Source: Myxococcales bacterium (GTDB taxonomy: Bacteria; Myxococcota_A; Polyangia; Polyangiales; Ga0077539). From it: a stretch of DNA of 64,000 bases. Each line of letters begins with the position of its first letter. Positions within the stretch are counted from its first letter, which is position 1. The stretch is from assembly GCA_016792845.1 (NCBI GenBank), contig JAEUKH010000043.1, positions 153,846 through 217,845 of the forward strand, in the 5' to 3' direction. The notes beneath the pieces were generated by a model. The model searched no databases, had not been told where the DNA came from, and worked only from the letters and a program-made list of their open reading frames with translations. Position numbers and translations under genes: made by a program. Positions 5,216 through 23,295 of this stretch are shown piece by piece.

Positions 5216-5218
5216 CGC

Positions 5219-8143
5219 CTAAAACCCTACCGCCGGGTGCTGCCCGTCGACGCCGAAGCCGCGCTCGCTGGGCGCCTCGGCGTGCACCCGCTGAAACCAT
5301 CGGGTGTCGCTGGCGAGGGGCGCCTCGGGGCTCCGTTGGTAGGTGTCGCGCCCGCCGGTGTCGAGAAAGATGCCGACCGTCGCGCGCATGAGCCGGCCCG
5401 GGTCGGTGAGGGTCTCGAGGGCCGCGTTGCCGAGGGTGAGCGCGCTCGCCGCGTCGTAGGTGTCGTCGCCGCCTTCGTCGAAGAAGAGCCCCGCGCCGTT
5501 CGCGTTGCCTGCGCCGAGCGCGAGGTTCGGCACGCCGTAACGGTCGCCCTCGGGCCCGAGCGCGAGCAAGAGACCCAAGCTGAAATCGTGCCCCGCCCCG
5601 GCGGTCATGTTCTGCCGCGTCGCCGTCGCGTTGTGGACGTCGCGCCCGCCCCCGTCGACCAGCGCGCCGTACGCGAAATGGGCCGCGGCGCCCTGCACGT
5701 ACCACCGCCCGTCGTAGTGATCGTCGCCGGTGCCGTCGAGCAAGAGGCCCATGCCGCCCCAGTAGCCCGTGCCCTGGCCGAAGACGCTGGTGGTGTAGCG
5801 ATCGCTGCCCGCAGCGTCGCGCAAGATGCCGAGGCCGCCCGACATGTTGATGCGGTCGGGGTAGGCGTCGCCGCGGCGACCGAAGCCCGCGCCTTGGGTG
5901 AAGCTCGAGTTGGTCGTCGGCGACTGGGCCGAGGGGTAGAGCATCGGCGTCACCTTGCTGTCGTACACGTCGTCGCCGCCGCGGTCGTAGAGGAGCCCCG
6001 CGCCCTGCACGTATCCGTAGCCCTGCGCGAAGGCCCAGGTGGTGTACCGATCGGCCTCTGCGCCGAGGTCGACGAGCACGCCCACGCCGCCCACCGCGGC
6101 CCCCTGCCCCGCGGCTTCGACCGAGTAGGTGTCGGCGCCGCCGTCGTCGAAGAGACCCCCCACCCCGAGGGCGCCGAAGCCCTGCGACATTCTGAGCGAG
6201 CGGTACTGATCGCGCCCCTGGCCGAGGTCGTAGAGGAGCCCCACACCGAGGCGCCCCGCGCCCTGCCGCGCCGTACGCGACATCGACGGCGAGCCCGCCC
6301 CGCTCCGCGCCCTGCCGTCGGCGTCGCTGGCGAGCGTCTCGGGCGTGTCGAGCGGCGACGGCACCTCGGGGTAGCCGTAGCGGTCGTCGCCGGCGAGGTC
6401 GACGAGCACGCTCACGCCATTGTCGACGTCTTGGTTCGCCGCCACCGGCGCGAGATAGGTGTCAGACCCGCCGAGGTCGATCACCACCAGCGTCCGCGGG
6501 AAGTCAGCGGCGTCGTAGCGGTGGTCGGCCGCGTCGCGCACCACCACGCGCCCCGCGGGCGTGTCGACGTTCAGCGAAGGGCCCATCGCGCCGCGCCAGG
6601 TCGACCACGCGACGGCCTCGACGGTGGCGGCGAGGCGCAGCGCCTCGGCCGTGGGCAGGCGCACCGTGTCGCGAAACATCACAAGGTCATCAACCTGCGT
6701 AAAATCAGGGCGATCGTTGAGGCGATTGCTCGGCAGAAAGGTGTTCGGCGCGATGCGAAAGAGCCGCTCGCGGGCCACCGCGTCGGGCGCCGCGATCAGC
6801 CCCGCGTCGCGGGCGTCGAGGGTCTCGCGCGCGACCTCGAGCACCGCCGCGAGGGCACCCGCAAGGGAGGCCGGGAGCCCCATCACCTCACGCGAGAGGG
6901 CGGCCGCATCGGGCGTCGCGCCGCCCCGTCGCTGGAGCGCTTCGAGGGCCCGCAGGAGCGCGTCGTGGCCGCCCGAGGCGACCCGCGGAGACGGCACTTC
7001 GAGGGCGTCGACCCGAGCCCCGAGGCGGAGCGAGGCCGTGCGCGCGAGGGCCGCCGAGAGGGTGCCGACGCCGGTGTCGAGTTGGGGCCCGAGACCGCGC
7101 GCGAAGCGGGCCCCGGCGAGCCAGTCGCGGTGCACGCGGTCAAAGAGCGGGAGGCGGTAACGGTCGCGCGAGACGTTGCTGCCGAAGATGTCGAGGGCGG
7201 CGCTCGGGAAGAAGAGGTTGCAGCGAGAGAAGGGCGCCCCCGGCTCGGCCCCCAAGGCGCGATCGAGCGCAGACCCCGCCTCCGACCCGAGACACCCGCA
7301 CTCGTTCGGGACACACCGCGACCCGAGGCTCCCCACCGGCACGCAGCCCACCGGCCCGCCCCCGCACGAGGCCGCGTCGGTGCACGCCGCCGAGCAGAAC
7401 CCGCGCACCGCAGGGTCGAGCCCCTCTAGGCACGAGAGCCCCGCCGCACACGGGGTCATCGCGTCACAGGGCGCGCCCACGCCGCGCGTGTTGACCCTTG
7501 CAGCGCCGCAGGCCTCGGGCCCGATTCGGTCGTCGGGGATGCAAACTTGCACGCGCGCTCCGGCGCGATTTTGCACCGTGCGGCAGCGCCGCGCGCCGTC
7601 TTCGCAGTCTTCGTCGCGGGCGCAGCGGGCGGTGCACAGAAAGTCGCTGCGGCCCACCGAGAGGCTCGGGTCGCGCAGGTCGGCGCACTCGGTGTACCGC
7701 CCCGAGCACCCCGCCTCGGGGCATCGGTCGCCGCGCCGAGAGCCCGTCACCACACACGAGAAGGCCGTGTCGGGCGTGCAGAGAAGCGCGCCTCGGGGCC
7801 CCTCGCGGCAGGTCGAGGGCACCGCCGCCTCGCAGGGCGCGCCGAGTTCGCTGCACACCGCGCGGCACTCGCGAAAGCCCGGGGCCCGCATGCGGTCGAC
7901 TTCGACGCAGAGGCCGTCGAGGCCGCAGGTCTCATCGCGGAGACAGGGCTGGCACGTGAAGGGCGCCACCGGCGGAGCCTCGACCGGGCCCGCGTCGAGG
8001 GGCCCCGCGTCGACGCCGACGTCGGGCGCGGTGACACCCTGGTCGACCGCGGCGTCTCCGCCCGCGTCACCAGGCGGCGGAGACGCACCGCCCGAACACG
8101 CCAACAACCCCAGCACCCACAGCCCGCGCAGCGCCCTTCGCAT
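5219..8143 (-). CDS. Large secreted lipoprotein (975 aa) with a Cys-rich N-terminal region and C-terminal tandem G-x-G-h-h-h-D-x-G-G-x-D-x-Y repeats (beta-solenoid-like)
   Basis: C-terminal part of ORF 5219..9646. Upstream of 8143 that ORF is antisense to the HD-domain gene. ATG at 8143 gives 'MRRALRGLWVLGLLACSGG' (lipobox). About 36 Cys lie in the first ~350 aa. About 10 repeats of the type 'LGVGLLYDLGQGRDQY', 'LGVGGLFDDGGADTY', 'AGLLYDRGGDDVY', 'MGLLLDGTGDDHY', 'AGLFFDEGGDDTY'. Confidence 0.65.
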   Translation of the reverse strand: MRRALRGLWVLGLLACSGGASPPPGDAGGDAAVDQGVTAPDVGVDAGPLDAGPVEAPPVAPFTCQPCLRDETCGLDGLCVEVDRMRAPGFRECRAVCSELGAPCEAAVPSTCREGPRGALLCTPDTAFSCVVTGSRRGDRCPEAGCSGRYTECADLRDPSLSVGRSDFLCTARCARDEDCEDGARRCRTVQNRAGARVQVCIPDDRIGPEACGAARVNTRGVGAPCDAMTPCAAGLSCLEGLDPAVRGFCSAACTDAASCGGGPVGCVPVGSLGSRCVPNECGCLGSEAGSALDRALGAEPGAPFSRCNLFFPSAALDIFGSNVSRDRYRLPLFDRVHRDWLAGARFARGLGPQLDTGVGTLSAALARTASLRLGARVDALEVPSPRVASGGHDALLRALEALQRRGGATPDAAALSREVMGLPASLAGALAAVLEVARETLDARDAGLIAAPDAVARERLFRIAPNTFLPSNRLNDRPDFTQVDDLVMFRDTVRLPTAEALRLAATVEAVAWSTWRGAMGPSLNVDTPAGRVVVRDAADHRYDAADFPRTLVVIDLGGSDTYLAPVAANQDVDNGVSVLVDLAGDDRYGYPEVPSPLDTPETLASDADGRARSGAGSPSMSRTARQGAGRLGVGLLYDLGQGRDQYRSLRMSQGFGALGVGGLFDDGGADTYSVEAAGQGAAVGGVGVLVDLGAEADRYTTWAFAQGYGYVQGAGLLYDRGGDDVYDSKVTPMLYPSAQSPTTNSSFTQGAGFGRRGDAYPDRINMSGGLGILRDAAGSDRYTTSVFGQGTGYWGGMGLLLDGTGDDHYDGRWYVQGAAAHFAYGALVDGGGRDVHNATATRQNMTAGAGHDFSLGLLLALGPEGDRYGVPNLALGAGNANGAGLFFDEGGDDTYDAASALTLGNAALETLTDPGRLMRATVGIFLDTGGRDTYQRSPEAPLASDTRWFQRVHAEAPSERGFGVDGQHPAVGF

Positions 8144-8401
8144 CACCGCCGGAGCCTCGCACGAAGCGGCCCGAGGCGCCCTCGAAACCCATGCGTCGGC
8201 CTCTACCCTCGCGCGGCGCCGACGGGCGTGTGCGCGGCGCGAGGCGTCGGCGGGCCGCGGGCCGCGCGGTGCAGCCCAAAGGGGTCGCGCGGGGCGCGAG
8301 ACTTCAGCGAGAATGTGTGGGGCTTCGGTCGCGAGGGCGCGGGCTCGCGGGGCGGCTTGCTTCGGGGCCCGAGAGGGGTATAGGGTCCGCGCCCTTTTGA
8401 G

Positions 8402-9358
8402 ATGACGACGGTGAATGCCAACCTTGACCCCGAGGCCCTCGCGCGGCTCGGGTTGCGTACCGTCGATCTGGCGGTGATGGCCCTCGAAGCCACGGTGAAG
8501 ACCAGCGAGAGCGGCGCTCGACCCGAGGGCGTGGTGCGCTGCGATCCGAAGTGGTTCCTCGAAGTCGAGGTGGCGCGGGTGCGCGCGAGCTTGGAGCGGG
8601 TGCTGATGGGTCGCCACCCCGACGAGGGCCTCGACGCGCTCCTCGAAGTGGGCGCCCTCGAGCTCCTCTTGCCCGAGATCAACGCCATGGTGGGCTTCGG
8701 CGACGGCGAGTGGCGCCACAAAGACGTGTGGAAGCACACGAAGCAGGTGGTGCGTCAGGCCGTGCCGCGCACCGAGGTGCGTTGGGCGGCGCTCTTGCAC
8801 GACATCGGCAAGATCAAGACCCGGCGCATCGAGCCCAACGGCGAGGTGCACTTCTTCGGGCACGCCGAGGTCGGCGCGAGCATGTTCGACCGGCTGCAAC
8901 GGCGGCTGCCGCTCTTCAAGGGCGAAGACGCCCTCTCGTCGAGCGTGCGCTTCCTGATCTTGCACCACCTCCGCGCGAGCCAATACGACGACTCGTGGAC
9001 CGACAGCGCCGTGCGTCGCTTCGCCAAAGAGATGGGCGGCTGCATGGGCGACCTCCTCGACCTGTCGCGCGCCGACATCACCACCAAGCGCCCCGAGAAG
9101 AAGCGCCGCGGCCTCGAAGCCATCAGCGAGCTCGCCGCCCGGGTGCGACAGATCCAAGACGAAGACGCGCGGGTGCCGCCGCTGCCCAAGGGCGTCGGCA
9201 CGGCCATCTCGGCGACCTTCGGCATCGCCCCCTCGCCGCGCCTCGGCGAGCTCATGAAGAAGCTCAAAGAGGCCGTCGAAGGCGGCGAGCTCGACGCCCA
9301 GCGCGAGGCCGAGTACTACCTCGAATGGCTCCGCGCCTCGGGCCTCGTCGGCGGTTGA
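8402..9358 (+). CDS. HD-domain phosphohydrolase family protein
   Basis: 'AALLHDIGK' HD motif. Resembles the HD half of CCA-adding/poly(A) polymerase enzymes but lacks the N-terminal nucleotidyltransferase domain. Confidence 0.65.
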   Translation: MTTVNANLDPEALARLGLRTVDLAVMALEATVKTSESGARPEGVVRCDPKWFLEVEVARVRASLERVLMGRHPDEGLDALLEVGALELLLPEINAMVGFGDGEWRHKDVWKHTKQVVRQAVPRTEVRWAALLHDIGKIKTRRIEPNGEVHFFGHAEVGASMFDRLQRRLPLFKGEDALSSSVRFLILHHLRASQYDDSWTDSAVRRFAKEMGGCMGDLLDLSRADITTKRPEKKRRGLEAISELAARVRQIQDEDARVPPLPKGVGTAISATFGIAPSPRLGELMKKLKEAVEGGELDAQREAEYYLEWLRASGLVGG

Positions 9359-9389
9359 CGCCGGGGCCCGCGGGGCGCTCAATCGCGGC

Positions 9390-9908
9390 ATGATCGACCT
9401 CGGGGCCTTCGTGCGCGACGTGCCAGACTTTCCCCGCCCGGGGATCTTGTTCAAAGACATCACACCCCTCCTCGGCGACCCGCGCGCCTTCGCGCAGAGC
9501 ATCGAGACCCTCGCGGCGCCCTTCCGCGGCCGCGTCGACCGGGTGGCCTGCATCGACGCCCGAGGCTTTCTCTTCGGGGCGCCCGCCGCCATCGCCCTCG
9601 GCGTGGGCCTCGTGCCCATTCGTAAACCATCGAAATTACCGTACAAAACTCACTCCGTCGGCTACGCCCTCGAGTACGGCACGAACACCCTCTCGATGCA
9701 CACCGACGCGGTGACGCCGGGCGAGCGGGTGCTCCTCATCGACGACGTGCTCGCCACCGGGGGCTCCGCCGGGGCGGCCATTTCGCTCCTCGAAGCGGGC
9801 GGCGCGAGGCTCGTCGGCGCGGCCTTTCTGATCGAGCTCGCCTTCCTCGGCGGGCGCGCGAAGCTCGCGCCGGGGCTCGACGTCGTGGCCGCGATCACCT
9901 ACGCGTAG
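9390..9908 (+). CDS. apt: Adenine phosphoribosyltransferase
   Basis: 'PDFPRPGILFKDITPLL', the 'LLIDDVLATGGS' PRPP-binding motif, 172 aa. Confidence 0.9.
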   Translation: MIDLGAFVRDVPDFPRPGILFKDITPLLGDPRAFAQSIETLAAPFRGRVDRVACIDARGFLFGAPAAIALGVGLVPIRKPSKLPYKTHSVGYALEYGTNTLSMHTDAVTPGERVLLIDDVLATGGSAGAAISLLEAGGARLVGAAFLIELAFLGGRAKLAPGLDVVAAITYA

Positions 9909-11863: not shown

Positions 11864-14485
11864 TCAGGCTTTGCGCAAGATCATCTTGTCGGTCTCGGCC
11901 GCGAGGGTCGGCGAGAGCTCGCGCAAGAGGCGCCGCGCGTCGTCGAGGTCGCGGGGGCTGCCCTTCTGCATCGAGAGCGCCACGACGCGCCCCTGCACGA
12001 GCGGCGCGAGCATCTCGAAGTTCACCGTCGGCAAGACCCTGCGGGTGTACGCGATGCGGCGCATGTCGTCGCGCAGCACGTCCCAAGCTTCGCGGGCCCG
12101 GGCGTAGACCGCCGTCGCGTCGTCGGGCGAGCGCGCCATGGCCTCTGACCGCGGCCCGGTCTCTCGCTCGACCTTGAGCCAGGCCGCCTCGATGTCGGCC
12201 GGAGGCGCGCTCCAGTGCGTGTCGAGCACCTCGAAGTGGTTCGCCGTGAGCCCGCGCTCGCGACGCGCTTGCAAGACGCTCAGCGCGTCAGGGCCCTGCT
12301 TCGCCGCGAGGGGCTCGAACGACACCACATCAAAGGCCGCGAGGAGCCCCAGAAGGTGCAAGAGCGAGCTGCGCGACGCGGTGGCCCCGCCGAGGAGCGT
12401 GTCGAGGCTCTGCTGCCCGTCGAGCTCGTGCTCGACCATGCGGCGCTCGCGGTCGTGAAGCCCTAGCTTTTGGATCACCCAGCGCCGCGCCTCGCGCACC
12501 GTCGGCGCCAGCCCGCGCTGATCTGCGAAGATGGCCTCAAGCTCGGCCTGGGTGCTCATGCGCAAGATCGACTGGCAGCCCTCGACCACGAAGGCGAACA
12601 TCGAGCTCGTGAGGGTCGGCCCTGACGGCGCGCTCGACGGCTCGTGCAGCGACCACTGCCCTTCGGAGAGCGAAAACAGCTCTCGCACCAGGCTCTTCTC
12701 GGTGGCCAGGACGATCGGGCGACCGTGTTCGATGTGCAGCGAGAGCGCCCGGCCGCGAGGCGGCTGAAACTCAACCCGCACCCGCGCGAGCCGCGCCCGC
12801 TCGATGCGGAGCAACAAGTTCGGCAACACCCAGGGCTCGCCCTCGTGGCTCGGCTGCCCGCGCCGCGGCAAGGTCGCCAAGGCCGCCGCGCTGGTGAGCC
12901 CCACGAAATGACCCGACCGCGCGAGGTTCGACGGCGGCAGCGACGACACCGCGCCCTGCGGCCCGCGGCCGAGCACCTCGCGGCCCTCGTGCGAACGCGC
13001 CGTCGAGGCGTCACCCGGCTGAGCGGCCGACGGCGCTGACAGAGGGCGCGACGCCGCAGACGCCGTCACCGTCGGCGCGACGGGGGCGCTCGGGGGCGCG
13101 CTCGCCCGAGGAGGCGGCGAATCAGACGGCGGGCGCGCGGGCGCAGCCGGTGCCACCTCTGCGGGCCGCGCGAAGGCGCCCGTCGGCCGCGGCGGAGGCA
13201 ACGACGACGGCGGCGAAAAAGAGCCCGTCAACCGCGGCGGAGGCAGCGACGACGGCGGCGAAAATGAGCCCGTCAACCGCGGAGGAGGCAACGACGTCGG
13301 CGGCGAAAAAGAGCCCGTCAACCGCGGAGGAGGCAGCGACGACGGCGGCGAAAAAGAGCCCGACACCCGCGGCGGTGGCAGCGACGTCGGCCTGGCCTCG
13401 CCCGCGCCCACCGCCCGCGCCAACGGCGGCGGCACCACGGTCTGACGCCCGCCGTCGACAGCGACCCGCGGCGGCAACGACACCGCCACGCTCTCCGACG
13501 TGCGACGCCCCGCAGGGCCGAGCGCGTCGTCGAGCTGCCACCCGGGCTGCTGATGCCGCGACGCCGACAAGCGAAGCGCCCCCTCGGCCACCGCGCCGCG
13601 ATCTGCACGAACCACCGGAACCCCGAGGTCGCGCCCCACGGCCTCGGCCACCCCCGACACCCGCGCCAGGAGGTCGACCACCACCACCGCCGAGAGCGCG
13701 CTCACCCGAAGCCCCGCCGCCTCGGTCACGGCGCGCCCAAGCTCGCCCGCCGCCCGGGCCAAGAGGTCTTGAATGTGAACCCGCTGGCCCACCCCAAGCT
13801 GCGCCGCCATGGCCCCAAGCTCGGGCACCGCGACGCTCACCTCGTCGCCCGCGAGCAGCGCCTCGCGCGAGGGCCCCAACGCCACCGCCAACGCCTCGGC
13901 CGAGAGACCCTCGCGGAGCCCCGCCAACGACGACGCGAGCAACGCGTCGACGGCGTCGAGGGTGTGGTGCAGCGACCGCGACCGCGACCGCGCCGCGACC
14001 CGCTGCCCAGACACAGAAAACACCGCCGCTTCGAGGCCCTCGGCGTCGTGGACGAAGACCAGCACGTCGCCCCGAAGCGCGGCCCCCAACGCCACCGCGG
14101 CGGCGTCGCACCGCCCGACCATGCGGTCGACCCCGACCCCTGAGGCGCGCAAGACGTCGTTGACCATGGGGCCGTGCACGCCGATCCATCGAGAGGGCAT
14201 CGCCACGGTGACCCCCGCCACCGCGTCAGGCCCCCGCAGCGCCCCCCAAAGCGCCCCCAAGCGCGCCGCCCCCGACGGCGCCGCGAGCACCTCGGACCAC
14301 CGCCCGAGACGCCGCGTCACGCCCGCGCCCCCCGCGAGCCGCGCCCCGTGCCCCACCGCCACCACCCCCGTCGGCCCCTCGGCCACCCACACCGGGAGCT
14401 CGCCCCCCCGCGGCGCCCCCCCGAGCGCCCCCGTCGCCAGTCGAATGATCGAACCGCCCAGGTCGAGGCCCTGCACCACCGCCAT
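11864..14485 (-). CDS. Hsp70/actin-fold (ASKHA) ATPase domain, a Pro-rich tandem-repeat linker, and a conserved C-terminal region ending in a degenerate J-like domain
   Basis: N-terminus 'MAVVQGLDLGGS' resembles the Hsp70/actin phosphate-1 loop. Middle carries 'SLPPPRLTGSFSPP' about five times. C-terminus has 'LLLRIERARL...FAFVVEG...RERRMVEHELDGQQSL...', which resembles DUF4388-type regions. The tail 'NHFEVLDTHWSAPPADIEAAW...AREAWDVLRDDMRRIAYTRR' fits J-domain helix II/III spacing but lacks HPD. It is a paralogue of 14711..17116. Confidence 0.6.
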   Translation of the reverse strand: MAVVQGLDLGGSIIRLATGALGGAPRGGELPVWVAEGPTGVVAVGHGARLAGGAGVTRRLGRWSEVLAAPSGAARLGALWGALRGPDAVAGVTVAMPSRWIGVHGPMVNDVLRASGVGVDRMVGRCDAAAVALGAALRGDVLVFVHDAEGLEAAVFSVSGQRVAARSRSRSLHHTLDAVDALLASSLAGLREGLSAEALAVALGPSREALLAGDEVSVAVPELGAMAAQLGVGQRVHIQDLLARAAGELGRAVTEAAGLRVSALSAVVVVDLLARVSGVAEAVGRDLGVPVVRADRGAVAEGALRLSASRHQQPGWQLDDALGPAGRRTSESVAVSLPPRVAVDGGRQTVVPPPLARAVGAGEARPTSLPPPRVSGSFSPPSSLPPPRLTGSFSPPTSLPPPRLTGSFSPPSSLPPPRLTGSFSPPSSLPPPRPTGAFARPAEVAPAAPARPPSDSPPPRASAPPSAPVAPTVTASAASRPLSAPSAAQPGDASTARSHEGREVLGRGPQGAVSSLPPSNLARSGHFVGLTSAAALATLPRRGQPSHEGEPWVLPNLLLRIERARLARVRVEFQPPRGRALSLHIEHGRPIVLATEKSLVRELFSLSEGQWSLHEPSSAPSGPTLTSSMFAFVVEGCQSILRMSTQAELEAIFADQRGLAPTVREARRWVIQKLGLHDRERRMVEHELDGQQSLDTLLGGATASRSSLLHLLGLLAAFDVVSFEPLAAKQGPDALSVLQARRERGLTANHFEVLDTHWSAPPADIEAAWLKVERETGPRSEAMARSPDDATAVYARAREAWDVLRDDMRRIAYTRRVLPTVNFEMLAPLVQGRVVALSMQKGSPRDLDDARRLLRELSPTLAAETDKMILRKA
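13185..13400. repeat. About five tandem copies of a 42-bp in-frame repeat inside CDS 11864..14485
   Basis: Direct repeats 'gcgacgacggcggcgaaaaagagcccgtcaaccgcggaggaggca' are visible in the sequence. On the minus strand they encode SLPPPRLTGSFSPP units. Confidence 0.75.
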
Positions 14486-14710
14486 GACACCCTCGTCACA
14501 CGCACCCGGCGCCATGCACCGGCGTCAAGCGCCCGCGGCAACGCGCGAACGCCCCATCGCGCACGCCTCAACCCGCAGAGGCCGCCACGCTCGCGATGCT
14601 GCTACTCCGAGGAGGTGCGGCGTCAAGCCTTCACTGTGCAAATTCGCACTGCACCCGTCGATTTAGCCGAAATCTCTTCACAATCAACCAAGCGCTAGAT
14701 AGCGACCTGG

Positions 14711-17116
14711 CTACTCAATCTGCAAATCTTGCTTTTTGATGAGCAACTCTTCGGTCTCATGCCACAGCTCGGGTGACAGCTCGCGGAGGAGCCGCCGCGC
14801 CTCATCGCGCTCGGCCTCGGCCCCTTCTTGCATCGACAGCGCCACGACGCGCCCCTGAACCACCGTCGCGAGCATCTCAAAGCTCACCGTGGGGAAGGTC
14901 TTTCGCGTGTACGCCACCCGCGAGCGATCGTGAGAGAGCACCGCCCACGCCGCGTCGGCCTGCCGCATCAGCTGCGCCGTCAACGCAGGGTGCGCGCGCG
15001 ACGCCGCCGAGCCCGGGCCCCACTGCGCGACAAAATGACGCCGCGCCTGATCGATTTCGTCTCGCCCTGCGCTCCAATGAACGCCATAGAGGGCAAAATG
15101 GTGCAGGGTCGGCGCCCTGGCGACCAGGGCCTCCAGCGAGGGGCCCTCGGGGGCCTCGTCGCGCGTCGGCGGCACCACCCACTGCAAGGCGTCGAAGCTG
15201 GTGAGGAGACACAACAGATGCAAGAGCCCGCTGCGCGAGGCCGCCGCGCCGCCGAGGAGCGCCCCGAGGCTCTGCTGACCGTCGAGGGCCTGCTCGACCA
15301 TGCGGCGCTCGCGCTCGGTGAGGCCGAGCTTGAACACCATCCACCGCCGGTGCTCGCGCACCGCGGGCGCCATCGCCTCGTGCCCGGGCACCACCGCGGC
15401 CTCGAGCTCGGCCTGCGTGGCGCCCCGCAGCACCGATTGAACCCCCTCGACGAGGAAGGCGAACATCGACCACTGGAGCGTCGCGCCCTCTCGCGGCCCC
15501 GCGGCCTCGACGAGACGCCAACGCCCTTCGGTCTGGGCGAAGATCTGACGCAAGACGCCCCGCTCGGCAGCCCCAAGGGTCGGGCGCCCGTGCTCGATCG
15601 CGAGCGCCCAGCGCCCCTCGGCGCTCTCGAGCTCAAGCAGAGCGTACGGCAGCCGCGCGCGCTCGATGCGAAGCAGGAGCCAAGACAGGGGCCACACCCC
15701 TCCGTCGCGGGGCCCCTTGGCGTCGCGTAGACTGACCGCCGCGGCCGCCGTCGGCGCGCCCACCCAAAGCCCCTCGCGCCCAAGCTGGGTCGGCGGGAGC
15801 GAGGCCCCACGCACCGCCCGCTGGCTCTCTTCAGGCGGCAGCGACAGGGGCCGCGGGCGTTGCGACTCGCCCGCTCGCGCCGCCGGGGCATCGCCCGCCT
15901 CGGTCGCCCGCGCGATTTCTGGCGACGCCGTGCGAGGCGACGCCGTGGCGGGTTCGGCGTTGGGCGGAGGCAGGAGCGTCGCACGCGCTGAACGCGCCTC
16001 GGACGGCGGCGGGGCCAGGGGCGCGGGGCCCTCAGACGCGGAGCCCTCAGACGCGGGTCTCTCGGGCGCGCGAACCCACTGCCCCACCCCGCCCCGCGGC
16101 GTCATGCGCGACGGGCGCTCGACCGGCGCGAGGAGGGCCGCCGAGTAACGGGCCGCCCCCTCGGCCGCGGCGAAGCTGTCGGCGCGCGAGATGGCCAGCG
16201 AGAGTCGGGTCTCGAGCGCCTCGCGCAGCGCCTCGCTCTCGCCGAGGAGGTCGAGCGCCACCACCGCGCTCACCGCCGTTCGATCGAGCCCCGCGTCGTG
16301 GAGGGCCAGCGCGTACACCGCCGCCACGGCCTCGGTGAGGGCGCCCAACGCCGCCTCGCGCTGCGCCGCCCGCAGCCGCAGCGTGGTCACCGCGCCCACC
16401 TGGTCGTCGAGGGCCACCAGCTCGACCGGCTCACCCGCAAGGAGCGCGCGCCGCGCCTGCCCCGTCGCCAGGGCCAACGCCAACGACCCGCGCAGCCCGG
16501 GGCCCGCGTTCGGCGCAGCCATTTTCAAGAGCAGGGCGTCGACCTCGTCGAGGGTGAAGCGCGCGTCGTGCACCCGCGCCACGAACGACACCCCCTCGCA
16601 CGCGATCGCGAACACCGCGGCCTCGACCCCGTCGGCGTCGAGCACGAGCCCGAGCACCGTGCCCCGGGTGCGACGCGCCATCGCGTGGGCGGCGGCGTCG
16701 AGGCGCCCCAGCGTCGTGTCGATCACGAGCCCGGCACTCCGCGCCGCCGCGTCGAGGCGCTCGCGGTGCTGCGAGGCCCACCGCGGCGGCAGCGACACCA
16801 CCACCCGCCCGCCGTCGAGGGCGATGCCGCCGGTCTCGACGCTGCGCCGGAGGCTCCCCATCACGAGCCCGAGGCCGCGCGTCGCGTCATGCGATTCAGA
16901 CAGCACCTCGGCCCAACGCGAGAGCGCAGGCTCGCCCCGCATCAACGCCGCCGCCTGCGCCGCGAGCCCCACCTCCCAATGGCCCGCAGCGCCTCGCGCC
17001 AGCACCAACGGAAGCTCGCGCCGAACAGGCCCGCGCCCCGCCAACGACGCCGCCCCCGACTGCGCCATCGCCCGCACCACCGAACCACCCAGATCAATGC
17101 CCACGACCGATTGCAT
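14711..17116 (-). CDS. Paralogue of 11864..14485: Hsp70/actin-like ATPase, low-complexity linker, conserved C-terminal region with degenerate J-like domain
   Basis: 'MQSVVGIDLGGS' N-terminus. C-terminus shares 'LLLRIERARL', 'SMFAFLVEGVQSVLRGATQAELEA', 'RERRMVEQALDGQQSLGALLGGAAASRSGLLHLL', 'FEMLATVVQGRVVALSMQ' and 'RLLRELSP' with the upstream gene. Tail 'HHFALYGVHWSAGRDEIDQARRHFVAQWGPG...ADAAWAVLSHDRSRVAYTRK' is J-like without HPD. Confidence 0.6.
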   Translation of the reverse strand: MQSVVGIDLGGSVVRAMAQSGAASLAGRGPVRRELPLVLARGAAGHWEVGLAAQAAALMRGEPALSRWAEVLSESHDATRGLGLVMGSLRRSVETGGIALDGGRVVVSLPPRWASQHRERLDAAARSAGLVIDTTLGRLDAAAHAMARRTRGTVLGLVLDADGVEAAVFAIACEGVSFVARVHDARFTLDEVDALLLKMAAPNAGPGLRGSLALALATGQARRALLAGEPVELVALDDQVGAVTTLRLRAAQREAALGALTEAVAAVYALALHDAGLDRTAVSAVVALDLLGESEALREALETRLSLAISRADSFAAAEGAARYSAALLAPVERPSRMTPRGGVGQWVRAPERPASEGSASEGPAPLAPPPSEARSARATLLPPPNAEPATASPRTASPEIARATEAGDAPAARAGESQRPRPLSLPPEESQRAVRGASLPPTQLGREGLWVGAPTAAAAVSLRDAKGPRDGGVWPLSWLLLRIERARLPYALLELESAEGRWALAIEHGRPTLGAAERGVLRQIFAQTEGRWRLVEAAGPREGATLQWSMFAFLVEGVQSVLRGATQAELEAAVVPGHEAMAPAVREHRRWMVFKLGLTERERRMVEQALDGQQSLGALLGGAAASRSGLLHLLCLLTSFDALQWVVPPTRDEAPEGPSLEALVARAPTLHHFALYGVHWSAGRDEIDQARRHFVAQWGPGSAASRAHPALTAQLMRQADAAWAVLSHDRSRVAYTRKTFPTVSFEMLATVVQGRVVALSMQEGAEAERDEARRLLRELSPELWHETEELLIKKQDLQIE

Positions 17117-17281
17117 CGCGCGTCTCAACAGCTCTGTGCGTCAGCGGACTCGCACCTACACAGCCCCACAAGGTGTACACTCTGCGTCACACCCTGCAAG
17201 GCTTCGATGCATCGCGGCGCGCCGATCTGACATTTTCAAGCTCGCTTGAAAGCAGCGCGGGCCTCGCGGGGCAGGCGTCTC

Positions 17282-18697: not shown

Positions 18698-20773
18698 TCA
18701 TCGCACGAGGTTCACCTGCAAGACCACCAGCCCGTGCGGGCTCGTCCCTTGCTCGATGACCACGTCGCGGTAGCCCTCTTTTCGCACCGTCAGCCGCCGC
18801 GGACGGGCCCGCACCTCAGCCCGAACGAGCACCATTTCGAGCGGCGTCATCCCGAGCACGGAGTCGCCCTCGAACACCCGCGCGCTCGGGGGGTTGCTCA
18901 CCACGCGGATCCGAAACTGCCCCGTCGAGAGCGGATCTGCCGGGGTCGCCCCGGTGAGCGCCAGAAAAGAGCTCTGGAGCGCCTCGCGCTGGCTGTACCC
19001 CAACGCCCCGAGCCCGCCCACGAGGCCGAGCAAGATCAACCATCCGAGCCACGCGCCCTTCGCCCCCCCGGGAGCGGGCCCCGCCGCGTGCATCGCCGTA
19101 GGGGCCCCTGGCAACGCGTAGAAGGCGCCCTGAGGCCCTTGGGCGACCCCGACCGCCTGGGCGTGGCTCCAGGGCCCCTGCGAGCCCCCTAGGCCCCCTA
19201 GGCCGCCTTGACCACCCTGAACGGCAGACAGCGACGGCGCCATGGGGGCCACCGGCGGAGGCAGCCCTGCACCTTGCCAGAGCGCGTCGCGGCCTTCGAT
19301 GAGGGTGTCGAGGTCGGGGGCCGAGGCGCGGTGCTCGACGGCGCCGGGGTTGGTGGGGGCGTTGGGCCCGTCACCGAAGGCGTCGGGGTCGTAGCTGCCG
19401 TCGAGCCGGGTGTTGCGCTCGCGCTCGGGGGCGGCGACGGGGCGCGGCACCGCGGGGAGCTGCCCCGAGGCCAGGGGTTCGATCACCGCCACCATGTCGC
19501 GGATGGTGCGCGAGGCGAGCCCGTCGCGTTGGTTCACCAGGGTCTCGAACTGCTCGTCGTCGTTCTCGTCGGTGGCGGTGCCTTCGTGGGCCGCTTCGGC
19601 CCCGAGCGGCGCGATGGGCGCGATGCCGAGCGAGCGTACGTCGAGGGCGTCTTGGTTCGGGGCGAGGGTCTGGCCCCCGCCGGGCTTGAGCTCGCCGGTC
19701 ACCGAGAGCCCGAGGGCGAGCCCCGGGCGCCGGGCCCCGGGCCGCGCGAACTCGCGGATGATGCGGCGGTTCTCTTCGAGCATCTCGCCGAAGGCCTGGC
19801 GCATCTCGCCGGCCACGTCGTTGCGGGTGGCGCCGCTCAGCTCGGCCTGGATCACCGCTTCGAGGTCTTGCCGCATCGCCTCGGCGGTGGCGTAGCGCTG
19901 GTCGCGGTCGCGGGCGAGAGACTTCGCGAGCACGGCGTCGAGCCCGAGCGGCGCGTCGCGACGGAAATCGCGCACCGAGGGCAGGGCCATGCCCATGATG
20001 TTCTTGTACGTCACCGCGTCGTTGGGGCCCTTGAAGAGCCGCCGCCCGGTGGTCATCTCCCACAGAAGGACGCCCATCGACCAGAGGTCTGTGCGGCGGT
20101 CGATGGGGTTGGGGTAAAACTGCTCGGGGGCCATGTACGCGAGCTTGCCCTTGAGCATCCCCGTGCGGGTGGCCTCGTCTTGGAGGGTGGCCTTCGCGAT
20201 GCCGAAATCGAGCACCTTGGCCACGCCGTCGAGGGTGACAAAGAGGTTCGACGGGGTGACGTCGCGGTGCACCACCTGCAACGGGCGGCCGTCGAAATCG
20301 CGCAGCTCGTGCGCGTGATGGAGGCCGTCGAGGGCGTCGGTGCCGACCCGCAGGAGCAGGCCCATGGGCACCCCGGCCCCGTCTGCGAGGTACTTCCGCA
20401 CGATGCGGTCGAGCGAGAGGCCTTCGAGGTACTCCATCGCGATGAAGTACTGCCCGTCGATCTCGCCCACCTCTTGGGTGCTCACCACATTGGGGTGGTT
20501 GAGCCGCGCCGCGAGCCGCGCCTCATCGACGAACATCTTCACGAAGTGCTCATCGTGCCCGAGCGACGCGTGCATCTTCTTGACCACCACGAGCTTCTGA
20601 AAGCCCATGTTGCCTTGAAGCATCGCGAGGTGCGCCTCGGCCATGCCCCCTTGGCCGAGCCGCGCGATGAGCGAGTATTTGCCAAATCGTGACGCCTCAT
20701 CGACGGCTTCGCGACTGTCTCGATGATTCGACACGCCGACGCCGAGTCGGCCCCAGATGCCGCCCCACGTCAA
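18698..20773 (-). CDS. Ser/Thr protein kinase with a C-terminal transmembrane segment and PEGA domain
   Basis: 'LGQGGMAEAH' glycine loop, 'VVHRDVTPSNLF' catalytic loop, 'DFGIAK' and 'APE' motifs. TM helix 'WLGWLILLGLVGGLGAL'. PEGA-like 'IRVVSNPPSARVFEGDSVLGMTPLE'. Confidence 0.85.
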   Translation of the reverse strand: MTWGGIWGRLGVGVSNHRDSREAVDEASRFGKYSLIARLGQGGMAEAHLAMLQGNMGFQKLVVVKKMHASLGHDEHFVKMFVDEARLAARLNHPNVVSTQEVGEIDGQYFIAMEYLEGLSLDRIVRKYLADGAGVPMGLLLRVGTDALDGLHHAHELRDFDGRPLQVVHRDVTPSNLFVTLDGVAKVLDFGIAKATLQDEATRTGMLKGKLAYMAPEQFYPNPIDRRTDLWSMGVLLWEMTTGRRLFKGPNDAVTYKNIMGMALPSVRDFRRDAPLGLDAVLAKSLARDRDQRYATAEAMRQDLEAVIQAELSGATRNDVAGEMRQAFGEMLEENRRIIREFARPGARRPGLALGLSVTGELKPGGGQTLAPNQDALDVRSLGIAPIAPLGAEAAHEGTATDENDDEQFETLVNQRDGLASRTIRDMVAVIEPLASGQLPAVPRPVAAPERERNTRLDGSYDPDAFGDGPNAPTNPGAVEHRASAPDLDTLIEGRDALWQGAGLPPPVAPMAPSLSAVQGGQGGLGGLGGSQGPWSHAQAVGVAQGPQGAFYALPGAPTAMHAAGPAPGGAKGAWLGWLILLGLVGGLGALGYSQREALQSSFLALTGATPADPLSTGQFRIRVVSNPPSARVFEGDSVLGMTPLEMVLVRAEVRARPRRLTVRKEGYRDVVIEQGTSPHGLVVLQVNLVR

Positions 20774-20813
20774 GCCCAGAACGCCACCTACACCCGCGTC
20801 AACACAGCGTTCA

Positions 20814-21740
20814 TCACCCGTGCCAGACCGCGCTCGGGCCGAGGCTCGGGGCGTCGACCACGGCCCCCTCGGCGGGCGACCACACCCGGGCCCGCGCCCC
20901 GGCGAGCCGCCCGTCGTCTGAGAGCTCGTAGAGGTTGTAGGCCCCCATGCGCCCCGGGCGCGGGTCGAGCAGCGACGCGCTGGTGGCCCCCAAGACGTGG
21001 AGGGTCTCGCCCGCGTCGCCGTGCAGCGCGGCCTGCCCGCGGTGATGCAGGTGCCCGTGGAGGCTCAGGGTCACCGGCCGACCGCGCGTGAGAAGCTCGC
21101 GGACCGGGTCGGCGTCGTGCCAGCCGCGCAGCAGCCGGGCCATCGTTCGGGTGGGGTTGACCACCGGGTGGTGCGCCACCACCACCGGGGTGCGGGCCTT
21201 GACCTCGGGGTGTTCGAGCAGGGCCTTGAGGGCCTCGAACTGGGCCGCCCCGAGGTGCCCCGAGGCGACCAGCGGCAGCCGCGGCACCGCCGTCGAGAGC
21301 CCCACGATGGCCGCCGGCCCGCGGAGCCTGACGAAGGGGTAGCGCAGCCCCTCTGGGGTGGGCAGGTCGCTCGCGATGTTGGGCCCGAAGTGCTTCGCGA
21401 AGCGCTCGCTGCGCGCGGCCCCGCGGGTGTAGAGGTCGTGGTTGCCGGGCACCACCGTGAGGGCCTCGGCGGGCAAGGCGAGGCGGTCGAGCACCCGACG
21501 GGCGAGGGCGAATTCTTCGTCGAGGGCGAGGTTCGTGAGGTCGCCCGAGACGATCACATGGTCGACGGCGCCGGCCCTGAGGTCGTCGATGAGGGCTTCG
21601 AGCACGGCGGGGCGGTGCTTGTGCTCGCGCTTCATGCGGAGGTTCACCATGCCCGTGAGGCGCTTGTTGAGGTAGAGCCGCGAGGCCGAGACCCCCGCGA
21701 GGTCGAGCAGGTGCAGGTCTGACAGGTGCGCGATCTTCAT
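20814..21740 (-). CDS. Calcineurin-like metallophosphoesterase
   Basis: 'MKIAHLSDLHL', 'VIVSGDLTN' and 'VPGNHD' motifs. Only the C-terminal 308 aa of ORF 20814..22526 are real. ATG at 21740. Confidence 0.8.
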   Translation of the reverse strand: MKIAHLSDLHLLDLAGVSASRLYLNKRLTGMVNLRMKREHKHRPAVLEALIDDLRAGAVDHVIVSGDLTNLALDEEFALARRVLDRLALPAEALTVVPGNHDLYTRGAARSERFAKHFGPNIASDLPTPEGLRYPFVRLRGPAAIVGLSTAVPRLPLVASGHLGAAQFEALKALLEHPEVKARTPVVVAHHPVVNPTRTMARLLRGWHDADPVRELLTRGRPVTLSLHGHLHHRGQAALHGDAGETLHVLGATSASLLDPRPGRMGAYNLYELSDDGRLAGARARVWSPAEGAVVDAPSLGPSAVWHG

Positions 21741-21879
21741 GACGTGCCCGAGAGAGTACGCACCGCGGCGGCGGCGTCGAGTCGCTTGCACCGGCTCGCA
21801 CCGGGCGCGTTGACAGCGACGCGCGAAGCGTGGCGAACTCCGCGCGATTTTCGCGACCGACGCGAGAGGAGCACACACC

Positions 21880-22629
21880 ATGGACAAGACCGTCGCCGAC
21901 GCCCTGGCGGCCTGCGCAGACATCCCCGAGGGGGCCAAGCTCCTCGCGGGGGGCTTTGGGCTTTGTGGCATCCCTGAGAACTGCATCGCCGCGATTCGCA
22001 GCCGCGAGACCCGCAACCTCTGGGTGATCTCGAACAACTGCGGCGTTGACGATTGGGGCCTCGGGCTGCTGCTCAACAACAAGCAGATTCGCAAGATGAC
22101 CTCGTCGTATGTGGGCGAGAACAAGGAGTTCGAGCGGCAGTTTCTCCAGGGCGAGCTCGAGGTCGAGCTGGTGCCGCAGGGCACGCTGGCCGAGCGGCTG
22201 CGCGCGGGGGGCTCGGGCATTCCGGCGTTTTTCACCCCTGCGGGGGTCGGCACCCAGGTGGCCGAGGGCGGGCTGCCGATGCTGTACGGCCCGGGCGGCA
22301 GCATCCGAAAGGCCAGCGAGGCCAAAGAGACCCGCACCTTCGAGGGCCGCGAGTACGTGATGGAGCACGGCATCACCGGCGACTTCGCCATCGTCAAGGC
22401 CTGGCGCGGCGACCGCCACGGCAACCTCCAGTTTCGCGCCTCGTCGCGCAACTTCAACCCCCTCTGCGCGATGGCCGCTCGGGTCACCATCGCCGAGGTC
22501 GAGGAGCTCGTCGAACCGGGCGTCATCGACCCCGACGCGGTGCACCTCGCGGGGGTCTTCGTGCAGCGTATTTTTCAAGGCAAAGACTACGTCAAGCGCA
22601 TCGAGCGGCGCACCGTTCAGAAGGGCTGA
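21880..22629 (+). CDS. scoA: 3-oxoacid CoA-transferase subunit A
   Basis: Full-length match to the family III CoA-transferase alpha subunit ('GGFGLCGIPE'). Confidence 0.9.
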   Translation: MDKTVADALAACADIPEGAKLLAGGFGLCGIPENCIAAIRSRETRNLWVISNNCGVDDWGLGLLLNNKQIRKMTSSYVGENKEFERQFLQGELEVELVPQGTLAERLRAGGSGIPAFFTPAGVGTQVAEGGLPMLYGPGGSIRKASEAKETRTFEGREYVMEHGITGDFAIVKAWRGDRHGNLQFRASSRNFNPLCAMAARVTIAEVEELVEPGVIDPDAVHLAGVFVQRIFQGKDYVKRIERRTVQKG

Positions 22630-22641
22630 GAGGCGAGCACC

Positions 22642-23295
22642 ATGTTGACCCGTGAACAGATCGCCCAGCGCGTGGCGCGCGAGCTCCGCGACGGCTTTTA
22701 CGTCAACCTCGGCATCGGCATGCCCACCCTGGTGCCGAACTACGTCGAAGCCGGCGTCGAGGTCGTGCTCCAGAGCGAGAACGGCGTGCTCGGCGTCGGG
22801 CCCTACCCGGTCGAGGCGAGGGTCGACCCCGACCTCATCAACGCGGGCAAAGAGACCATCACCGTGCGCCCCGGCGCGAGCTTCTTCGACAGCGCCCAGA
22901 GCTTCTCGATGATCCGCGCGGGCAAGATCGACCTGGCCATCCTCGGGGCCATGCAGGTGAGCGAATCGGGCGATCTCGCAAACTGGATGATCCCCGGCAA
23001 GATGGTCAAAGGCATGGGCGGCGCGATGGACCTCGTGCACGGCGCCCGCAAGCTCATCGTCATGATGGAGCACGCCGCCAAAGACGGCACCCCGAAGATC
23101 GTGAAGCGCTGCTCGCTGCCGCTCACGGGCCGCGGCGTGGTGCACAAGATCATCACCGACATGGCCGTGATCGACATCACCGCCGAGGGGCTCTTCTTGC
23201 GCGAGGTGGCGCCCGGCGTGAGCGCCCGCGACGTGCAGGCCATCACCGAGCCCACGCTCAAGATCGAGGGCGAGCTCATCGAGATGCCGGTCTGA
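22642..23295 (+). CDS. scoB: 3-oxoacid CoA-transferase subunit B
   Basis: 'NLGIGMPT' and 'SENG' catalytic Glu context. Lies immediately downstream of subunit A. Confidence 0.9.

Follow-up and report, generated by a model that had tools for sequence, protein, structure and literature searches.

We use profile searches, alignment and structure prediction to study two adjacent minus-strand genes in a 64,000-nucleotide window (the whole stretch analysed, with a G+C content of about 72%) from a Myxococcales bacterium: W1, with an 883-aa product, and W2, with an 805-aa product. The two genes are an old, lineage-specific tandem duplication within a Myxococcota protein family. Each encodes an Hsp70-type nucleotide-binding domain (NBD) followed by a Pro/Ser/Ala-rich linker and a C-terminal module of about 350 residues (the C-module), which reads as a weakly PATAN-like unit, a helical domain, a J-like domain that has no HPD tripeptide, and a helical tail. 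In this pair the NBD has lost nearly all of the residues with which an Hsp70 binds and hydrolyses ATP, and on balance we favor a reading in which W1 and W2 act not as chaperones but as non-catalytic scaffolds or regulators.

Both reading frames are intact (2.6 kb for W1, 2.4 kb for W2; Table 1), and gene calls on identical Logan contigs (SRR29844875 and SRR29844876) place the starts slightly inside the open reading frames (ORFs), at M11 in W1 and M5 in W2, where each called start directly precedes a G-[IL]-D-L-G-G-S motif. The N-domains of the two proteins are 38% identical (E 2e-38) and the C-terminal ~350 aa are 44% identical (BLASTP, E 3e-82; about 48% across the aligned module). In a neighbor-joining tree W1 and W2 are sisters, with the family member P0003 next, and within this sub-branch the C-module evolves more slowly than the NBD (43-48% identity vs 32-37%). 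An earlier note on this DNA, written by a model from the letters alone, had proposed just this, tandem paralogues of one architecture with divergent Pro/Ala/Ser-rich linkers, and in these points it is borne out: the linkers do not align, that of W2 is predicted with a pLDDT (predicted local distance difference test) below 50, and the motifs it quoted are all present (VVGIDLGGS / VQGLDLGGS, LLLRIERARL, RERRMVE..LDGQQSL, FEMLA..VQGRVVALSMQ, RRLLRELSP, QWGPG / ETGPRS).

Taken singly, W1 and W2 pass no Pfam or NCBIfam model, and a phmmer search of the PDB with them returns nothing significant; an NCBIfam match to ActJ (18 bits vs a cut-off of 150) and a weak Glyoxalase_3 match (E 0.037) were dismissed. 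Word-indexed protein searches, whether started from the whole protein, from the C-domain or from the C-module alignment, return little but self matches, with a sensitivity limited by the low-complexity linker and by the index. When 1.84 billion representatives are searched exhaustively with HMMER (E<=1e-3), 183 relatives are found, among which domain mapping places the C-module in 159 sequences and the N-domain as well in 58.

The N-domain is an Hsp70-type NBD, not PilM, FtsA or MreB, and the fold and domain findings are solid. Pfam HSP70 is passed by 39 of 51 full-length relatives (best 1.8e-60) and MreB_Mbl is matched weakly in 18 (MreB 4e-8); the NCBIfam models for DnaK and HscA are matched by 37 and 34 relatives, and NCBIfam holds no dedicated model for the family. 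A profile of the 51 members retrieves DnaK NBDs from the PDB at E 1e-79, in an alignment that spans the whole NBD (profile positions 1-362) and nothing beyond. With the family alignment as input, AlphaFold2 models W2 with a mean pLDDT of 83 and two folded regions, 1-337 and 447-805 (the N-domain predicted from the single sequence reaches a pLDDT of 38), and a Foldseek search with the W2 model finds Hsp70 NBDs at E 1e-14 with a target TM of up to 0.70; Ssz1 is among the top structural matches. The NBD dominates both fold searches with the whole W2 model, and neither yielded fold matches for the PATAN-like and middle domains. After the NBD come a disordered linker and an unrelated module, and not the hydrophobic interdomain linker and substrate-binding domain (SBD, made of SBD-beta with a lid) of a canonical Hsp70.

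The residues of the nucleotide site separate the pair from most of its family. We aligned 33 N-domains to the DnaK NBD and scored D8, K70, E171, D194-G-G-G-T199, GG229/230 and GG341/342. Most of the family retains D8, T11, K70, E171, D-x-G-A-G-G and both GG motifs, whereas in W1, W2 and their nearest relative P0003, E171 is replaced by R, the two GG motifs read TL and DL, and the phosphate-2 segment has become D-A-[DE]-G-[VL]-E-A-A (DADG or DAEG in the pair; in W2, DxGGGT has changed to DADGVE). K70 is lost in W1 and W2 too, being A in W2 and S in W1, and of the catalytic and nucleotide-binding set these two proteins keep D8 only. Because E171, K70 and the three glycine loops are gone, W1 and W2 have probably lost the ability to bind and hydrolyze ATP in the Hsp70 manner and are probably not ATPases. 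The replacement motifs are themselves conserved across W1, W2 and P0003, which points to a selected, altered site and not to decay.

At the other end of the protein, a 32-sequence profile of the C-module that includes W1 and W2 picks out PDB J domains (DNAJB8, E. coli DnaJ and DNAJA3) with E-values from 4e-9 to 4e-8, in a match that covers the complete domain and aligns the family's 'gpg' to HPD. Pfam DnaJ is matched by 25 of the 51 full-length and 16 of the 32 C-module relatives; W1 singly aligns to it with full-length coverage at residues 759-823 (12047-12241), below threshold at E 0.099. The J-like helices of W2 are predicted with a pLDDT above 90. J domains need the HPD tripeptide, which lies between helices II and III, to stimulate Hsp70. 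Here it is replaced by G-P-G in W2 (residues 704-706; 15011-15019) and by G-P-R in W1 (12149-12157), and it is present in none of the 106 family modules compared, where the consensus is Y-G-P-G-G (column counts Y36/L32, G51/A24, P74, G69 and G53/S33). An H-W motif preceding helix II is conserved: in W2 numbering H684 never varies, and W685, F678, A727 and R737 hardly do. Since the HPD is lost, the J-like domain is predicted not to stimulate an Hsp70 ATPase. A distant C-module relative, P0163 (584 aa, from a metagenome-assembled genome (MAG) of the Anaeromyxobacteraceae), joins DUF4388 to a J domain whose YHPD is intact and to TPR; because it keeps a true YHPD beside DUF4388, it suggests that the HPD-less module descends from a real PATAN-containing J-protein, with P0163 as a possible ancestral type.

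The first part of the C-module resembles PATAN (DUF4388) domains at the level of the family. Pfam DUF4388 is matched in 12 of the 51 full-length and 8 of the 32 C-module relatives, including the C-module-only proteins P0149 (25.8 bits, the highest score in that group and just above the cut-off), P0122 (24.1 bits) and, more weakly, P0006 and P0024, and these matches align with W2 residues ~475-545. W1 and W2 themselves have no match to the Pfam model. An hhalign comparison of the W2/W1/P0003 sub-profile with five verified DUF4388 segments matched just 20 columns (E 0.016), no solved PATAN structure is among the matches of the C-module profile in the PDB, and the middle domain of W2 matched no known family. 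Read against these results, the picture drawn in the earlier note changes in part. Its HPD-less J-like module stands; of the two kinships offered for the N-domain, Hsp70 is upheld and PilM/FtsA is not; the 'chaperone-like ATPase' keeps its NBD fold and, judging by the aligned residues, probably loses its ATPase; and the DUF4388 similarity for which it proposed to search the tail gives Pfam matches in relatives and none in W1 or W2.

The family was found in metagenome-derived sequences and MAGs only. A degenerate DNA pattern for N-H-F-x-x-L-G-V-H-W finds 37 loci among 185,579 GTDB species genomes, all of them in MAGs; none of the genome matches is a cultured isolate, and a single-protein query found no relative in the GTDB genomes. 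Thirty-four of these loci carry the labels Myxococcota, Myxococcales, Deltaproteobacteria, Polyangiaceae, Sandaracinaceae or Persicimonas, and the other three are labeled 'proteobacterium', 'Proteobacteria bacterium' and 'bacterium'. Members go by unspecific names in databases ('Hsp70 family protein', 'J domain-containing protein', 'actin-like ATPase involved in cell morphogenesis', 'hypothetical protein'). The tandem pair, whose conservation the earlier note raised, is not a family trait: none of the 37 loci, each viewed over 8 kb or less, holds one, their neighbors are not in common with those of the pair, and P0003 is single-copy in an unrelated neighborhood.

Other members join the C-module to different partners. 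In other Myxococcota MAGs it follows PilZ at L007:4690-7962(-) and L004:131-3757(+) and a REC receiver at L020:4921-7998(-); it comes after additional DUF4388 copies in P0112 and P0046, and it is duplicated in P0004. The PilZ-type loci L007, L012, L014, L019, L027, L031, L037 and L038 have syntenic neighbors in common, including a pseudouridine synthase. An NCBIfam model for an MshE-related motif that binds cyclic di-GMP (c-di-GMP) is matched by two family members (best E 1.5e-8), which hints that some members may bind c-di-GMP directly. At L013, L017, L023 and L030 (e.g. L023:4233-7058(-)) the member, NBD-bearing where the sequence suffices to tell, precedes a conserved protein of ~940 aa that combines MopE-type metal-binding repeats with an FGE-sulfatase domain; the W1/W2 pair has no such protein beside it. 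One member has its N-domain and C-module split over two overlapping frames (L033:1337-3418(+) and L033:2406-3692(+)), whether through a frameshift or a sequencing error or because the gene is a pseudogene.

How might such proteins work? With an NBD lacking its catalytic set, no SBD and a J-like domain without HPD, W1 and W2 would, by what is established on Hsp70 and J-domain biochemistry, neither run nor stimulate a chaperone cycle, and this is what leads us to a scaffold or regulator. The function we infer has two parts: the pseudo-NBD, which keeps the fold while its ATP-binding and hydrolyzing residues and glycine loops appear lost, would act as a binding or regulatory surface, and the working end would be the C-module, serving in protein interaction or as an output module. 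We place the output there because the same module is joined elsewhere to the signal-input domains PilZ and REC. The partner may be the cell's own DnaK system or components of the type IV pilus, as for the PATAN domains of cyanobacteria. By analogy, a link to pilus, exopolysaccharide (EPS) or polarity control is a reasonable lead, because the PATAN domain of cyanobacterial PatA-type regulators is an output domain that binds PilB1 and PilC (bioRxiv 10.1101/2021.06.11.447907) and because in M. xanthus the Hsp70 homologues SglK and StkA are reported to affect both S-motility and EPS (PMC8265645).

Several points weigh against the scaffold or regulator reading. There is no genomic-context support at the locus for any partner or pathway, the pilus/EPS lead included: the neighbors of the pair are unrelated housekeeping or signaling genes, and neighborhood clustering finds no neighbor family common to the window and the other family loci. 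The PATAN assignment of W1 and W2 is weak, coming from the family through transitive homology. Their N-domains themselves lie below Pfam HSP70 significance (no match at E<=1), the presumed loss of ATP binding is read from the alignment while D8 and the overall pocket remain, and the inter-domain geometry of the W2 model is unreliable (predicted TM-score, pTM, 0.52).

The main rival keeps the pair within chaperone biology, as decoys or competitive regulators of the canonical DnaK system. Either the J-like domain would sit in the J-site of an Hsp70 without stimulating it, or the pseudo-NBD would take up DnaJ or GrpE by titration, by analogy with Pam16 restraining Pam18 and with Ssz1 pairing with zuotin. 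The J-fold determinants F678, A727, L731 and R737 are strongly conserved despite the loss of HPD, the intact YHPD of P0163 suggests descent from a real J-protein, and Ssz1, a non-hydrolyzing Hsp70 with a J-protein partner, ranks high among the structural matches. However, helix II shows no conserved basic character across the family and no dnaK, dnaJ or grpE gene lies near the pair, and we regard this account as rather unlikely. One reading from the earlier note, an active Hsp70-like ATPase whose cycle is controlled by its J-like module, draws on the motif-intact members: most of the family outside the W1/W2/P0003 sub-branch keeps the NBD catalytic set, and with the NBD and J-like domain covalently linked, intramolecular regulation is conceivable for those proteins. 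For the pair itself it is improbable, as K70, E171, the phosphate-2 loop and both GG motifs are missing, allostery would have neither an SBD nor an interdomain linker to act through, and none of the 106 members has the HPD that stimulation needs.

A slightly poorer candidate still is a polymerizing actin-like protein (of the MreB, ParM or BeeR type) or a PilM/FtsA-like cytoskeletal or motility protein, a kinship that the weak MreB_Mbl matches might recall; Hsp70 NBDs outscore it both by sequence and by fold, and polymerization that depends on nucleotide is unlikely because the nucleotide motifs are lost. That the genes are decaying pseudogenes, or that one gene was duplicated by an assembly artefact, would agree with the failure of W1 and W2 to reach any curated family threshold singly. 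This idea is effectively refuted. Their protein identity is just 37-48%, which makes an assembly duplication of one gene (the possibility that the earlier note itself had raised) impossible, and the same two-gene arrangement is present in two separate, independent Logan assemblies; the frames are intact, the predicted fold is confident, and the replacement motifs are shared with P0003. A broader and distinctly tentative reading can be stated for the family: the PATAN-like/helical/HPD-less J-like module of about 350 aa might be an unrecognised signal-output module of Myxococcota that couples PilZ (c-di-GMP), REC (phosphorylation) or the Hsp70 NBD (as nucleotide or partner sensor) to one common target, for example the motor of the type IV pilus or the DnaK machinery. 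The window pair would then be a variant in which the NBD, once a switch driven by ATP, has become a domain that binds constitutively, and W1 might form a heterodimer with W2.

Table 1. Features of the W1/W2 locus, in window coordinates.
Feature	Position	Strand	Details
W2 full ORF	14711..17128	(-)	805 aa from TTG
W2 likely true start	ATG at 17116	(-)	801 aa (= P0001)
W2 Hsp70-type NBD fold, degenerate nucleotide-binding motifs	16118..17116	(-)	residues 5-337
W2 disordered Pro/Ala/Ser/Glu-rich linker	15791..16117	(-)	residues 338-446; pLDDT below 50
W2 PATAN/DUF4388-like alpha/beta unit (putative)	15494..15790	(-)	residues ~447-545; transitive homology only; secondary structure from AlphaFold2
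W2 helical middle domain, conserved	15149..15493	(-)	residues ~546-660; motif LGL..RERRMVE..LDGQQSL
W2 J-like domain	14894..15148	(-)	residues ~661-745
W2 C-terminal three-helix tail	14714..14893	(-)	residues 746-805; FEMLA..VQGRVVALSMQ, RRLLRELSP
W2-W1 intergenic spacer	14516..14710	(-)	195 nt
W1 full ORF	11864..14515	(-)	883 aa
W1 likely true start	ATG at 14485	(-)	873 aa
W1 degenerate Hsp70-type NBD	13535..14485	(-)	residues 11-327
W1 Pro/Ser/Ala-rich linker	12929..13534	(-)	residues 328-529
W1 C-module: PATAN-like unit, helical domain, J-like domain, helical tail	11867..12928	(-)	residues 530-883

The linkers seem to evolve by repeat expansion. That of W1 contains a 45-bp tandem repeat (13178-13391; 4.8 copies, 91% matches) that encodes SLPPPRLTGSFSPPS units, and that of W2 a shorter 15-bp repeat at 16022-16057. 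A scan of the spacer between the genes detected no sigma-70-like promoter and no intrinsic terminator. Around the pair lie genes for a thioredoxin-NHL protein (convergent), an adenine phosphoribosyltransferase, an HD-domain protein, a Nitr_red_assoc protein, an SDR, a Ser/Thr kinase and a phosphoglucomutase, and PADLOC finds no defense-system match. Directly upstream of the Ser/Thr kinase gene (18698-20773), and on the same strand as W1 and W2, is a 785-aa ORF (20788-23145 (-)) with no Pfam or PADLOC match. A 974-aa gene at 5218-8142 (-), called on the identical Logan contig and without a Pfam match, encodes a Cys-rich N-terminal part and, after it, many G-G-x-D-x-Y-type repeats; in the mechanical ORF list it runs to 1475 aa (5219-9646) and overlaps opposite-strand genes, an extension that is probably spurious.

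Some of the closest parallels for such an arrangement come from eukaryotes. In the ribosome-associated complex Ssz1-Zuo1, an atypical, non-hydrolyzing Hsp70 is stably paired with a J-protein. W1 and W2 differ in that the parts are covalently fused, the J-like domain has no HPD and there is no ribosome link, whereas Zuo1 has HPD and Ssz1 retains ATP binding and a remnant of the SBD. Pam16 (Tim16) is likewise an HPD-less J-like protein, in which the J fold is kept and the HPD replaced, so that the predicted role would be structural or regulatory and not stimulatory; the domain described here differs by its invariant H-W, its Y-G-P-G-G loop, its place within a ~350-aa module and its unrelated context.

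Among bacterial proteins, W1 and W2 share the Hsp70 NBD fold of their N-domains with DnaK and with the NBD-only ('cd10170') Hsp70 homologues, of which myxobacteria have 3-7 per genome (PMC8265645), and differ by their lost catalytic and nucleotide-binding residues, the lack of SBD and lid, and the PATAN/J-like C-terminus; the text of that survey has no mention of J or PATAN domains. The CsdK1/CsdK2 proteins of M. xanthus, reported as PilZ-DnaK fusion chaperones (PMC10313047), are a myxobacterial precedent for joining Hsp70-type proteins to second-messenger domains, much as relatives here join PilZ to the C-module; W1 and W2 lack PilZ, an SBD and intact ATPase motifs. With PATAN (DUF4388/PF14332) proteins such as the PatA-type PixE and PixG and M. 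xanthus SgnC, the family shares the DUF4388-like first part of the C-module and, as is typical of PATAN, the combination with REC or PilZ; the likeness is weak, as the bit scores of the C-module-only proteins and the lack of any match for W1 and W2 indicate. PATAN domains are further characterized by an alpha-helical 'alpha-clip' insertion and by interaction with partners of the PilB/PilC type.

We found no description of the architecture, which the earlier note had also thought undescribed, in the literature searched on DUF4388/PATAN with an Hsp70 or J domain, a search that most subscription-journal papers fell outside. The building blocks (Hsp70 NBD, PATAN, J-like) are known; their combination and the family appear to be new. 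If the module is a signaling output, Hsp70 and J-domain folds would here be reused for regulation and not for protein folding, in parallel with the eukaryotic pseudo-chaperone pairs Ssz1-Zuo1 and Pam16-Pam18. The motif-intact members and the degenerate pair offer a natural comparison for what the NBD contributes, and the family, if this holds, would offer a tangible way into the non-canonical Hsp70 paralogues of myxobacteria, many of which lack an explanation.

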